Shown here piece after piece: positions 29,065-38,494 of a DNA stretch of 64,000 bases. The stretch is from Octopus vulgaris. Lineage: Eukaryota. Below the pieces are notes generated by a model. That model was not told the origin of the DNA. It saw nothing but the letters and a program-made list of their open reading frames with translations, and did not search any database. The stretch is from contig OX597825.1 of the NCBI GenBank assembly GCA_951406725.2, positions 63,426,001 to 63,490,000 on the forward strand. The letters are read 5' to 3'. Position numbers and translations under genes: made by a program. How positions within the stretch are numbered: the stretch's first letter is position 1; every line of letters starts with the position of its first letter.

Positions 29065-30165
29065 TAAATTCTATGTCCCTAAGGAAACTATTCGGTTCAC
29101 CTTGATTATCTCACTTCCATTTCTTTATATATAATTAACCTAGGATATTTTGTACCTAACTAATTAACCTTTCTCCGCGGGTAGTAAATATTATTTCCAA
29201 AAGATTATATATTTTAATTCATTAATAACAATTCACTATCTATGAAATCTGAGTAATTTACTCTTCTAAATTACTTCTCTTCATTTTATTAAATCACCTT
29301 CTACCAAACCTACAAATACCTTTCTTGTTTGATTTCTCCTCTTCCATTTTTCCTATTATATATTTTTGACCCCTAATATATTCACTTGATTAATAAGACT
29401 TTTCCCCCAATTAATAAGTATTATGCCTACTCTTAATACGTGATAGATTTTTCTCTAAATTGAATGAATTTTAGATCTATAATTTCTCTTTTAATCCAAC
29501 GTATCAAAATACTCAAAACCTATCAGCTAATTATAATGTTGATGTATATTAGTTTTAAAAAAATCTCTACATTCTCTGAGTGGTCATTATAACCATTTGA
29601 CATTAACCTAGTTTTCCTAATGCTATATCTGTTTACTAAATAGTAGTAAAGGCATCTGTAGTGTGACAACCCTTTTCTCTCTACCTCAATTTCTTTATCT
29701 GGAACTTTGACATCTATTTCACCCCTAATTCTATAAAAAGAAACACTTTCTTGTCTCCATTCAATTGTCCATTCTTCTCAAAGCCTTCTAGCAGTTCAAA
29801 GCAACTGAATAATATTCAGTCAGTTGATTAACTCCACTACCTTAAATGTTCTTAAAATTTAAATCCATATCTTTGTCTATGTATCTACCTTCTCTATAAT
29901 GTTATCACTTGATATGAAAATTATGTACTAATGGAAAACCTCTATTAATGGCTGATGAGTGCCCAGCATTTTAAAACTGTTGTAATACTTACAACATTTA
30001 ATAAAATGATGTGGTGCGAAACGATCGTACCAAATTACCGAAATTATACTTGTTGCTTATTTTGATTATAATCACCCCAAGGATTTATATGGATAACACC
30101 ATACAAAATTCTGGTGCATCTAACTTAAGTACTATAATCATTTGAATCTAGATTTTGCTGAACTT
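29065..30165. mobile_element. Putative Penelope-like element remnant between (TA)n tracts
   Basis: Strand-biased decayed ORF on minus (84 stop-free codons at about 29777-29526) plus an HHR-bearing terminal segment homologous to 37060-37305. Confidence 0.5.
29946..30037 (+). ncRNA. Type-I hammerhead ribozyme motif with long stem II
   Basis: taatgg CTGATGA gtgcc...(59 nt)...ggtgc GAAA CGATCG TA cca; intact core and G10.1-C11.1 pair. Confidence 0.75.
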
Positions 30166-30220
30166 ATATATATATATATATGTATACACATATACGAATC
30201 AGATTCAAGGAGTCAGGGTA

Positions 30221-30273
30221 TACGTTGATGAGAGATATAAGGAAAACACTCACCACTCGGAACATATTACGTG
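30221..30273 (+). ncRNA. Degenerate hammerhead-like motif
   Basis: acg TTGATGA gag...ctc GGAA CATAT TA cgt; stems I and II pair, two core substitutions. Confidence 0.4.
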
Positions 30274-30554
30274 AAATGTTTGCGAACACAAATTTTGTAT
30301 TTACTGAACAATGGTCTATAAAAACGTTAATAATATAAAGCCTCATATTGGGGCTATGAAAACTCACAGCTAAGAGAAGGAAATTATAGAAGTCAAGAAA
30401 TTTTACATTTTTGCGAAACGTTTTAATTAATCTAAGAATATTCTATAATAGACCAGAAGCAAATAGAAAATCTATTAGAATTGGTTATGTTAGTGATGAT
30501 AGCGTTGATGTTGTTTAACCACACCACATCCAAAATAATGTACTCTAGCAGAAT

Positions 30555-30780
30555 AAGAGTTTTCAGATTTTGGCACAAGCTCGGCAATTTCGGAGAGGAG
30601 CATAAGACGACTACATGGACCCCAATGCACAACTGCTACTAATTTTATCTACACCGAAGAATGAAAGGTAAATTTGACCTCGGTGACATTGGTGACATTG
30701 GACCACAGAATGTAAATACGGGCGAAATGCCGCTGGGCATTTTGCCCGGCTGGGTAACGATTCTGCAAGCTTTCCGCCTT
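30555..30780 (-). mobile_element. SINE family A, diverged
   Basis: gaatgaaaggtaaatttgacctcgg...gaaatgccgct...gcattttgcccgg...taacgattctgc. Confidence 0.75.
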
Positions 30781-30929
30781 AACTCAAATACAGTAATATT
30801 AAAAGGTATTCAAGTTATAACCGTCCAATCATTTTCAGATATAGTTTACCGCAGATGACGTGTACCAAAATGGTGAGCATGTTTATAAGACGTGAGTGTA
30901 TGATCTGTTTTTCATCTAGCGTCAAAGAT

Positions 30930-32080
30930 ATTTTTGTTAACTGAACTATGAACTCCCTTAAGAGATGTTCATAAATTATGTGTAGCAAATTGTCTAGACA
31001 GGTTCGTACAAGAAGACAAAACAATTGACTATATTTTCAGAACTCTAAGATAATGGTTGTTAATTATCAAGAGCAATTTATTTACTTTCTTTCATTTACC
31101 AGTGACATATCTTTGTATTTTCCTAAAAAGATGACAATCACTCTTGCTGATGAGAAATTTATGAAAAGAACCCAGAGAGAATGTTGTGTAAATTTAAGAA
31201 CGGCAACATGTTTATTGAGACATGGTTATAATGCCAAATATTCACAATATATACCTATATACCTCACCGTATATATATGTATATATACATACATGTATTA
31301 TACAGAAACATACACAGACATCCCACCATGTATATATATATATATATATATATATATATATATATATATAAAACAGCGTTAGTGTAATAACAATTATCGA
31401 CAACACAGGCTTAACACTCGCGAGAAAAGTCTTTGCTGGTAGGTTGCGAATTGGCGCAGTGGAGGCTACTTTTTCAAAGTGCGTATTACTGAAACACTTG
31501 AACGTCATGGACATGCGACGCACCTCACTCAAATCTCATCCAAGAGTAATGGACATCGATATTTCGCCATGTTTGTGGCTTATCAATATCACGTAGCCGA
31601 ACCGATTCCGAGGTGAAACGTACCGCCACTCCACGCCTTATATGGATATAGTGTAAAAACTATGTACCGGTACGCCCCAACTATGCATACGTAAGAATAT
31701 ATTCAACTGTGAAATAGAAGCAGCGCTAGTGTAATAATCTTTATCGACCACACATACTTAATGCATATACATAGTTTACTTAGAGACATAGATATTGATG
31801 TCTATAATGAAACATAGAAGAATTGCAGAATAAGGAGGGCAAATACAACTGAATACGTAGCATATATGATATTTCTAATCTGCGGAAGTTACGAAAGTGA
31901 CTCAACGTCTGAGAATTATCAATTGCTCTTGATAATTAACAGCCATTGTTTTAGAGTTCTGAGAATATAGTCAAATGCTTAATGTCTTCTTGTATAAATC
32001 TAACTGTCTAGACAATTTGTTACACATAATTTATGAAGATCTCTTAAGGGAGTTCATACTTCGAGTCAACGAAAATTTGA
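30930..32080. repeat. ~150-bp inverted repeat pair (30930-31080 and 31920-32080)
   Basis: tatgaactcccttaagagat.ttcataaattatgtgta.caaattgtctagaca...aattatcaagagcaatt is present in both orientations. Confidence 0.85.
31372..31755 (-). mobile_element. ~345-bp element with direct terminal repeats and a central HHR motif
   Basis: cagcg(t/c)tagtgtaataa...ttatcgac.acaca at both ends; minus-strand gtgata TTGATAA gcca caaaca tggc GAAA TATCGATG TC cattac at 31546-31592. Confidence 0.65.
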
Positions 32081-36339: not shown

Positions 36340-36645
36340 TAATTGTATATATATATATATATGTATGTATATATATATATATATTTATATATACATATCT
36401 ATATATATATGTATATATATATATTTATATATACATATATACATACACACATATATATATATATATATGTATGTATATATATATATTTATATATACATAT
36501 ATACATACACACATATATATATATATATATATATATGTATATATATATATATTTATATATACATATATACATACATATATATATATATATATATATATAT
36601 ATATATATATATATATATATATATATATATATATATATATATATA
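36340..36645. repeat. (TA)n-based higher-order repeat
   Basis: Unit tatgtatatatatatatttatatatacatatatacatac(ac) recurs about four times. Confidence 0.85.
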
Positions 36646-36847
36646 TTAAGGCATATTCGTTAGGAATCTAGTAGAGTATAAAATAGAGCTCGCTCACACT
36701 TAGAATTACCGATATAAGTTGTATCGAAACATGTGTAGAGTTTGTTAAATAGCTGTCTAACTGTACCCCTTCTTGCTGACTCTATTTTTTGAATTTTGCA
36801 AATATATATATATAAATCAAAACAAGCAACAAAGATATCTAGAGGTA

Positions 36848-36936
36848 ATGCAGTACGATCGTTTCATTCAATTCCATTTAATTGAAGAATGTAATCATTA
36901 CACCAATTTAAAATGTAGTGCAATTTTCAGCTGCAC
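36848..36936 (-). ncRNA. Hammerhead motif, inverted copy (core CTGAAAA, G8A)
   Basis: Minus strand gtgcag CTGAAAA ttgc...gaat GAAA CGATCG TA ctgcat. Confidence 0.6.
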
Positions 36937-37081
36937 AAAGACATAGAATTTAATTAAATCAGAACAGATGGGAACATTAGTATAATAATACCTAATATCT
37001 CCAAGAAGTTAAGGAGATAGACAAAGAATATGATGTACCTACAACAATACTGTCGTAAATTTAATTATATTCTATGTCTTT

Positions 37082-37170
37082 GTGCAGCTGAAGATTGCTA
37101 TACATTTTAAATTGATGTAATGCTTGCATAGTTCAATTAAATGGAGTTGCATGAAACGATCGTACTGCAT
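37082..37170 (+). ncRNA. Type-I hammerhead ribozyme motif with long stem II
   Basis: gtgcag CTGAAGA ttgc...(58 nt)...gcat GAAA CGATCG TA ctgcat; 6-bp stem I. Confidence 0.75.
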
Positions 37171-38494
37171 TACCTCTGGATATCCTAGTTGCTTATTTTG
37201 ATTTTGATCACCTTATCTTGAAATTGTATGGATAATACCATACTAAACTCTCGTGCCTCAACTTAAATACCATATTCATCTGAATCTAAATGTTTGCTGA
37301 ACTATATATATATATATATATATATATATATATATATATATATATATATATATATATATATACCTTATTACCATGAGTTTGCAATAAGTTTTAAAATTCC
37401 TTAAAAGTTATAAAAGTTAGACAACAATCATTGTTTCTTGTAAATGACTAAATAATCATATTTAGAGTAATCACCAACGAACACACCATATTAGTGACTC
37501 TGTGGTCATGTGCATCTGTGCGCTCCTGCATGGGTGTATTTCAACAGGCAGCACATGGCATCAGAATATTACGCACTTAAATCCTAAATTCAGAACAAGT
37601 ATATACTTAATATATTAACTGCTTTACTCATGCTTATACGCATTGTGCACACAAGGATTATTCCGCACTTTCAAATAGGCTGCCTAATGCAAATTATATT
37701 ATTGCTTTTGTATAAAACTTTAAATTTACGATTTAACAAATGTTCAATAATAAATCTATGGACAGTCGATTTCATAAGATGAATTAAAAAGTTAGATTTC
37801 TACCACTGCTACTGGACAAATATTTTATTTTGCCCTTGTCTCAAAGAAATAAGAGTTCGAATGCATACAATTCACGGATAAGGTTACCATTTAAATTGAC
37901 ATCGAACTGTAAGACAAAGCACAAAAGCAACGATTATTCTTGCTATATGCAAATGTCAGAATGTCCCCCGCCGAAATGCTCTAACGCACATTAGTATAAA
38001 ACTATATAATTTTCCCTCCAACTTAAAAAAAATACAAACATAACACAAACTTTAAAAAAAATGTAAATTATCTTAATGAATTCGGCTACAAATAATCCTG
38101 AATATTGACTACTCATTTAAACGATTTATTTATTGGAGACGGCAGTTATATTCTATGACCTGCTAATATCGATCTAACGTGAATCTATTACGCGTTTTAT
38201 TTTTGTAGCCTTTTGTTCAATTATGTTGATCTGCTAAAGATTTCACTAAAACAGAGATGTCTTCATCCACTCGAGACGGAAATAATTTCCTTTCTTAGAA
38301 ATATTTCCAATGCTGCAAGGAAGATTGTAGACAGAGAATTTCGATATTATATTGTAATGGAATTGATGATTTCTTATTATCAATATGTTATCCTTTCAGG
38401 TTATTGTTGCTGTATTGATGTTGATATTGCTGTCATTGCTGTTGCTTTTCTTCCTCTTTTGCATTCGTGGCAAATAATAAACTTCTTTTCCTCG

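Follow-up and report, generated by a model that had tools for sequence, protein, structure and literature searches.

Hammerhead motifs with a long stem II in truncated Penelope-like elements of Octopus vulgaris

A 64,000-nucleotide (nt) stretch of the Octopus vulgaris genome (assembly GCA_951406725.2, contig OX597825.1, positions 63,426,001 to 63,490,000, forward strand; hereafter the window) carries two hammerhead ribozyme motifs with an unusually long stem II, raising the question of what these motifs belong to and what role the long stem might have. The original prediction described one family over a single span, 29946-37305, with selection on RNA structure and with stem II as a possible protein-binding or dimerization domain. 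The explanation favored here, which we consider fairly likely, is that the motifs derive from the 3′ ends of Hydra-clade Penelope-like elements (PLEs, a class of retrotransposons), that the hammerhead acts as a dimer of two copies of the same family, and that the long stem II is a rod under loose selection, tolerated rather than required. The PLE carrier of the Hydra clade, the identity of the shared downstream sequence as the PLE tail, and a third, inverted hammerhead copy were absent from the original prediction.

Both motifs (29946-30037 and 37082-37170) were confirmed. The CUGAnGA, GAAA, and NUH boxes with helices I to III in order were found at 29952 and 37088, and a generic type I scan of the whole window, run on both strands, matched these two copies and nothing else. 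The family-A motif (29949-30032, plus strand) consists of a 3-bp stem I (tgg, 29949-51; cca, 30030-32, as predicted), the core CTGATGA (29952-58), a 59-nt stem II (29959-30017) with an apical hairpin at 29978-29996, and GAAACGATCGTA (30018-29). It has a G-C at 10.1/11.1, its stem II has a minimum free energy of -17.0 (z = -3.6) and belongs to the covariation analysis below, and the predicted cut after A30029 is correctly placed by sequence. Its stem III octamer, ACGAUCGU (30021-30028, plus strand), is self-complementary, with a computed self-duplex energy of -10.0 kcal/mol, and is the predicted dimer contact. The family-B motif (37082-37170, plus strand) comprises the core CTGAAGA (37088-94), a 58-nt stem II (37095-37152), and GAAACGATCGTA (37153-64), with U-U at 10.1/11.1 and a correctly placed predicted cut after A37164. 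Its stem I, first read as a 4-bp gcag/ctgc, is 6 bp (gtgcag/ctgcat), and its apical hairpin is present with a different extent, the family-level hairpin being 8 bp with one break in this copy. Private changes have weakened its stem II, the family rod scoring -3.4 kcal/mol versus -11.2 kcal/mol for an alternative fold.

The two copies were 76% identical over 251 nt, including the 137 to 138 nt downstream of the motif, confirming the shared tail. A third family-B motif (36848-36936, minus strand; core at 36930, GAAA at 36865), head-to-head with the 37082 copy, was found by a search for the 11-mer that the A and B motifs have in common. Its core, CUGAAAA, departs from the type I boxes by replacement of G8 with A, and on the known role of G8 in the hammerhead (PMC11167929) it is predicted to be inactive. 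Between the A and B copies lie 6.6 kb of unrelated DNA, which rules out 29946-37305 as a single element; the A and B copies are therefore two independent insertions. No head-to-tail array of hammerhead motifs was present in the window, and the window copies are likely decaying products with no same-family, same-strand partner in cis nearby.

The motifs did not arise by chance, since family-A and family-B 19-mers had 1486 and 2078 exact matches in the genome, compared with 1 and 0 for the reversed pattern. About 12,000 matches to the hammerhead core were obtained genome-wide in this 2.8-Gb genome, which is rich in microsatellites. Both window motifs almost certainly lie in 5′-truncated 3′ ends of PLEs. 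The family-A insertion (29062-30166, plus strand) is a solo 5′-truncated fragment of the 3′ untranslated region (UTR) and pseudo-long terminal repeat (pLTR) with (TA)n on both flanks; it was 82.9% identical over 1141 nt to the 3′ UTR of a locus bearing an open reading frame (ORF) (L054). Remnants of reverse transcriptase (RT) and endonuclease (EN) lay upstream of the motif on the same strand at three family-A loci (L001, L054, and L055). The family-B insertion is an inverted pair, with a direct arm (37058-37302, plus strand) whose long end abuts (TA)n and an inverted arm (36814-37036, minus strand) whose short end abuts (TA)n. Runs of (TA)n border all three ends in the window and the majority of the 112 3′ ends sampled. 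Features of pLTRs were seen as a direct tandem in L055, inverted 5′-truncated pairs, and an optional tail. Family B was 71 to 75% identical to family A in the hammerhead and tail.

A single RT-EN ORF was found in sister family X and, as remnants 52 to 83% identical to it, in family A. The full-length family-X locus, L319, has a 981-amino-acid (aa) open frame with RT followed by a C-terminal GIY-YIG domain, an inverted 5′ arm, and a 5′ pLTR whose hammerhead lies ∼210 nt before the first Met; the downstream tail runs on into the ORF leader. Several open frames of 976 to 984 aa were present among 150 scored protein-search matches. Pfam matches to GIY-YIG above the cut-off were obtained for 2 of 7 ORF fragments and none for the whole ORF. 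The L319 protein contains RWK (64), DKT (151), GLYRDD, CxCX5C (CKCRIKSKC, 842), CxxC (CQLC, 939), and CxH (CVH, 969), with only one Cys between the GIY and YIG boxes and no CCHH. RWK and DKT were present and the N-terminal GxKF/Y absent in both L319 and L320, and the family-A loci carry the same CxCX5C, CxxC, and CxH motifs. Craig et al. 2021 (PMC8557442) define the Hydra clade by the presence of RWK, absence of GxKF/Y, replacement of DKG by DKT, CxCX5C, CxxC/CxH, and no CCHH. The L319 motif set matches this definition, and by motif comparison the element is therefore assigned to the Hydra clade. Its size exceeds the <3 kb typical of Hydra elements, the ORF alone measuring 2.9 kb with a further ∼1 kb of 3′ UTR. 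A Nematis or Naiad assignment was ruled out by domain order and motifs.

The closest named protein relative was from Octopus sinensis (84% over the RT stretch), and public relatives are mostly ∼700 aa long. In the elements described here (L319:1576-4518 (-), L051, L001), the linker between RT and endonuclease contains an in-frame, low-complexity, Asn-rich region of ∼300 aa. One PLE protein fragment (P0001) is labeled as a probable serine/threonine kinase in its public source, probably a misannotation. At two loci (L009:3083-3799 and L024:1615-3078), a different PLE ORF begins exactly where a family-A copy has its short end; its endonuclease resembles a Neptune row.

The insertions terminate at two fixed 3′ ends. 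Among 112 A and B copies, 60 ended 30 to 49 nt past the predicted cut (the short end, about +37), 49 ended at least 110 nt past it, mostly at 135 to 138 (the long end, about +135), and 3 ended in between. The PLE tail is the segment between these ends, ∼100 nt here (30067-30166, plus strand, in the family-A insertion). Inverted pairs combined one short and one long end in 15 of 16 cases, including the pair in the window. The tail of the anole PLE is bounded by two internal sites at which the RT starts (Frangieh et al. 2024, PMC11167929), and this two-start-site model predicts inverted pairs of one short and one long arm, as found here. The inversion junctions (L209-L238) clustered at short palindromic words (CCGG, GTAC, and the stem III palindrome), suggesting that two cDNAs may join by microhomology. 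At two further loci (L168 and L186), junctions showed repeated short restarts at or next to the predicted cut, resembling template jumps at an RNA 5′ end.

The stem III sequences point to a dimer. As a monomer, stem III has 2 bp and a 4-nt loop; as a self-duplex, it has 8 bp. At spacers of 45 to 75 nt, its alleles were GAUC (3938), AAUU (3604), GAUU (1918), and AAUC (324), counts to which no P value is attached because the copies are not independent events. Computed self-duplex energies of the corresponding octamers were -10.0, -6.4, -5.8, and 0 kcal/mol, so that the first three alleles self-pair and AAUC does not. A single CpG transition separates GAUC from GAUU, and likewise from AAUC; among the first 100 matches listed, GAUU was found in at least two whole subfamilies, while AAUC appeared as scattered decay across families. 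Misfolding was predicted for the free monomer, and in cofold predictions the double hammerhead was favored by 14.8 kcal/mol over two active monomers. An A:B heterodimer retained only 3 and 1 stem I pairs. Stem III is the likely dimer contact on its sequence, and self-cleavage would likely take place only in a same-family dimer, as modeled. The allele series and cofolds fit the dimer model published for PLE hammerheads by Cervera and De la Peña 2014 (PMC4209133) and by Lünse et al. 2017 as summarized in the review PMC6765202. The self-complementary, covarying part is stem III, with stem I exchanged, and the suggestion that stem II is a dimerization domain was not borne out.

Stem II itself varied widely in length. 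After the core, GAAACGATCGTA was matched 2225 times at spacers of 14 to 44 nt, 3938 times at 45 to 75 nt, and 170 times at 76 to 105 nt, with a few matches falling into two bins. Within a single lineage, stem II spanned 19 to 70 nt, and the genome as a whole contained lengths of 19 to about 100 nt. Forms of 19, 21, 38, 39, and 44 nt had one common downstream tail, the 44-nt and about 68- to 70-nt forms had a basal stem in common, and the 44- and 68-nt forms also shared the first 45 downstream nt. A sister lineage was amplified with a stem II of only 19 to 23 nt. This range within one lineage, together with amplification of the short forms, argues against a required domain and weakens the proposal of a protein-binding domain. 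In folding against shuffled sequences, stem II rods had z of -2.3 or lower in 12 of 15 representatives of several unrelated families, and z was better than -2 in 0 of 5 forms of 38 to 39 nt and 3 of 10 forms of 77 to 94 nt. Some of the arms in the longest forms (L081-L090; stem II, 77 to 94 nt) were AT-rich and predicted to be branched. The extension is often structured, homologous, and constrained inside the A/B/C/X/Y group, and it is not universal.

The original prediction of a hammerhead family with subfamilies, in which pairing is preserved through sequence change, was upheld, with stem I, basal stem II, and the apical hairpin all remaining paired from one subfamily to the next. In an alignment of 83 distinct copies, 87.2% of cells paired, compared with 81.4% in shuffles and 26 to 54% in slid structures. 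The stronger result came from a set of 52 copies chosen to span more subfamilies (34 of the 83, with fewer per family, plus 18 new), in which 13 of 22 pairs changed on both sides compared with 8.3 ± 1.0 in shuffles, a value reached by 0 of 500 shuffles and inflated by relatedness among copies according to the warning of the tool. In an RNAalifold consensus of the 83 copies, the apical hairpin appeared together with an inactive hairpin of the GUAC type and nothing else.

When 104 distinct copies were placed on a tree, pairs were kept more often by changes present in at least 3 leaves than by private changes. In the extension, shared changes kept 10 pairs and broke 6, versus 17 and 36 for private changes (P = 0.04), and in stem I the numbers were 7 and 0 versus 4 and 5 (P = 0.03); these McDonald-Kreitman-type P values are modest, uncorrected over five helices, and derived with a tree built from the same 94 alignment columns as the test. 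For single helices (apical, basal, or middle), shared and private changes did not differ significantly on this tree. Private changes per site (94 A1, A2, and B copies, from a set of 121 of which 103 were retained after removal of 18 that were truncated or gapped) were 0.020 to 0.035 in paired stem II, 0.010 to 0.038 in unpaired stem II, and 0.022 to 0.027 in the CUGAnGA box. Because private changes were even over paired, unpaired, and core positions, selection appears to act on the source elements while the genomic copies decay; the inference of selection on RNA structure thus holds for source elements and fails for genomic copies, which decay neutrally. The long stem II is likely a tolerated add-on, a loosely selected rod rather than a required domain.

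The U-U at 10.1/11.1, noted originally as a possible impairment of the 37082 copy, is real and not specific to that copy, being present in 26/26 B copies and 26/26 A2 copies. Other families here have G-C, A-U, U-A, A-A, or A-C at this position, and U-U is found in most Hydra magnipapillata rows of File S2, where it is the commonest published Hydra form (PMC8557442). A conserved contact between U1.7 and loop II was considered and dropped, as the partner position was not conserved.

Several results weigh against the favored explanation. Family B is linked to an ORF only through its homology to family A. The AAUU and GAUU alleles, like AAUC, are CpG-decay products; the active A dimer was not the lowest-energy cofold (-49.2 versus -55.1 predicted); and an outer loop pair might in principle close a 2-nt loop in the monomer. 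Double-change pairs in the 83-copy set were no higher than in shuffles (12 versus 11.6 overall, 3 versus 3.9 for the extension alone), so that the covariation proposed originally held in the 52-copy set and not by this count. The apical hairpin is conserved in all A/B/C/X/Y subfamilies, and a binding site would look alike. This last point bears on the reading that the extension, chiefly its apical UGYAA-NNN-UUR(C/U)A hairpin, is a handle for the element's own RT-endonuclease or a host protein that licenses folding or cleavage. The apical helix is 92 to 94% paired, with three pair types at two positions, the folded rods recur in unrelated families as described above, and the anole PLE hammerhead cleaves only with its own protein (PMC11167929). 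We nevertheless judge such a handle unlikely, given that the sister lineage amplifies with its short stem II, that no apical motif is common to unrelated long families, that the 38- to 39-nt and 77- to 94-nt forms mostly fold no better than shuffles at the z values given, and that an A-A mismatch lies in the apical helix of 8/26 A2 copies.

Evidence on cleavage was sought at the cut site itself. When a mismatch was forced at position 17 in family A, 38 matches were obtained compared with 1414 for the matched pattern. A junction exactly at the cut was seen in 13 of 30 loci examined from these 38 (two being one duplicated event) and in 12 of 30 examined from 82 family-B matches (one resembling an internal deletion), which also counts against the favored explanation, as the control at position -6 showed 8 of 18 and that at +8 showed 19 of 30 (57 matches), many at palindromic words; the controls come from family A only, family B has no control of its own, and any excess at the cut site is at most twofold. 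The early cut-site signal was not upheld, because inversion junctions cluster at palindromes of the CCGG and GTAC type. Contigs from four runs presumed to be RNA covered the family and were uninformative on ends, strand, and level. The same junction counts suit a motif that no longer cleaves in vivo and persists as a structured RNA signal, used, for example, to place the two RT starts, with uncut read-through transcripts as templates. Both family ends lie 3′ of the cut and most copies cross it intact, PLE hammerheads have low rates in vitro (PMC4209133), and the anole hammerhead is dispensable for insertion in vitro (PMC11167929), a further point against cleavage as part of the favored explanation. 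Preservation of the catalytic boxes and GUA in many families with unrelated stems, however, and covariation of the stem III palindrome as a dimer-type ribozyme would require, make this alternative quite improbable. A non-autonomous retrozyme, or a stand-alone ribozyme family resembling short interspersed elements with a host role, would explain why most copies are short and noncoding, and animal retrozymes also have type I hammerheads (10.64898/2026.07.22.740005). This reading is largely refuted because the motif is contiguous with the ORF, reached by the longer copies; given also the ragged 5′ ends, the neutral decay of copies, and the lack of a head-to-tail array in the window, it is very improbable.

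Under the favored explanation of Hydra-clade PLE 3′ ends with a same-family dimer, a tandem pLTR-ORF-pLTR transcript would unite two hammerheads, whose stem III octamers would pair as an 8-bp duplex. Stem I strands would be exchanged in the dimer, and stem I would hence determine family specificity. Cleavage would occur ∼210 nt ahead of the start codon, and the RT would initiate at two internal sites located ∼37 and 135 nt beyond the cut. Since both start sites lie downstream of the cut, the template would be RNA that is uncut there or re-ligated. With one start site used per target strand, the two arms of an inverted pair would differ, one ending short and the other long. At its tip, stem II would lengthen and shorten through AT-rich insertion, and source elements would keep it folded back, leaving the core undisturbed. 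A broader version, in which a large class of long-stem-II hammerheads is the normal cephalopod PLE ribozyme, a pairing code for dimer cleavage resides in the covarying stem III palindrome and the family-specific stem I, and the element's own RT docks on the apical hairpin, coupling cleavage to two-site priming, is speculative and on balance doubtful.

Elsewhere in the window, the region 32570-33500 is presumably a frameshifted mariner-like transposase remnant, as judged from its motifs, with no Pfam match on its fragments. A short frame at 27617-27877, which by motif resembles the end of a Tc1/mariner transposase, also lacked a Pfam match; Pfam searches of four window ORF fragments gave none. 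An inverted repeat of ∼140 nt with arms 1 kb apart (∼30940-31080 and 31925-32065), located by eye, possibly represents the ends of a miniature inverted-repeat transposable element, and two dispersed 237-nt copies (2642-2878 and 22192-22428) lie in opposite orientation and are 87% alike.

The octopus genome offers a natural mutagenesis series, given its ∼12,000 core matches, its stem II lengths of 19 to ∼100 nt, its young families with intact ORFs, and a predicted dimer contact that forms a G-C/G-U/A-U series in which the mismatch allele is depleted. Direct tests of the dimer model, and of what stem II does, thereby become feasible. The one-long-one-short rule for inverted pairs provides genome-scale support for two-site priming. 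Descriptor and Rfam scans overlook thousands of long-stem-II hammerheads per genome, which bears on claims that certain PLE clades are ribozyme-less; the window motifs had no match to an Rfam hammerhead model, whether at the gathering threshold or at E ≤ 10.

In the literature searched, from which most subscription papers, including Lünse et al. 2017, were missing, no earlier account of a cephalopod PLE hammerhead with a long stem II was found, and the accessible part of PMC13282606 does not mention a hammerhead or ribozyme. The nearest report is of "half-core" motifs (HHR_half_core) with 35- to 50-nt spacing in eight Naiads, two from cephalopods (PMC8557442). These cephalopod Naiad motifs (File S1) may be long-stem-II hammerheads missed by the descriptor, and the long-stem-II class may account more generally for the half-core motifs of Naiads considered ribozyme-less.

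Compared with the Hydra-clade PLEs of PMC8557442, the octopus elements have the same C-terminal GIY-YIG, RWK, DKT, CxCX5C, and CxxC/CxH without CCHH, the same (TA)n targets, a sense hammerhead near the 3′ end, and inverted 5′-truncated copies. They differ in stem II, which with its loop measures 58 to 59 nt here and 12 to 26 nt in 25 File S2 rows, far beyond the typical length, as originally claimed; the 56-motif alignment of Cervera 2014 (PMC4209133) shows similar lengths, and two spike-moss motifs with a longer stem II are flagged as deviant in the supplement of PMC8557442. Stem III here is a perfect even octamer, whereas most published ones have an odd center, the ORF of ∼950 aa contains an Asn-rich linker and is followed by ∼1 kb of 3′ UTR, and the tail is ∼100 nt compared with 30 to 40 bp (PMC8557442, PMC11167929). 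Hydra-1_Obim, a Hydra-clade PLE of Octopus bimaculoides, has a short stem II and another stem III (PMC8557442). The geometry also differs from that of the canonical Schistosoma-type hammerhead, with its 6-bp helix I, 4-bp helix II, and loop-loop contact.

The dimer-type PLE hammerheads of PMC4209133 are likewise type I, with a short palindromic stem III, compensatory stem changes, a dimer model, and dual copies on opposite strands 100 to 700 bp apart. Their helix II has 4 to 8 bp and a small loop, whereas that found here is 2 to 4 times longer; the G-C families here lack the additional unpaired nucleotide that follows A9, and the palindrome forms a G-C/G-U/A-U series. The octopus motifs thus share the short palindromic stem III of the dimer type and not its short helix II. 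Animal non-LTR retrozymes also carry type I hammerheads (10.64898/2026.07.22.740005) and have a proposed PLE origin, but theirs are tandem noncoding arrays, in contrast to the dispersed truncated ends of an ORF-bearing element described here. Poseidon PAc of the green anole (PMC11167929) similarly has two fixed 3′ ends that bound the tail, both downstream of the cut, and AT-rich targets. Its ORF begins inside stem II, whereas the start codon here lies ∼210 nt past the cut, and protein-assisted cleavage was shown for the anole element. What is new here is the stem II length variant, in a kind of PLE hammerhead that was itself already known.

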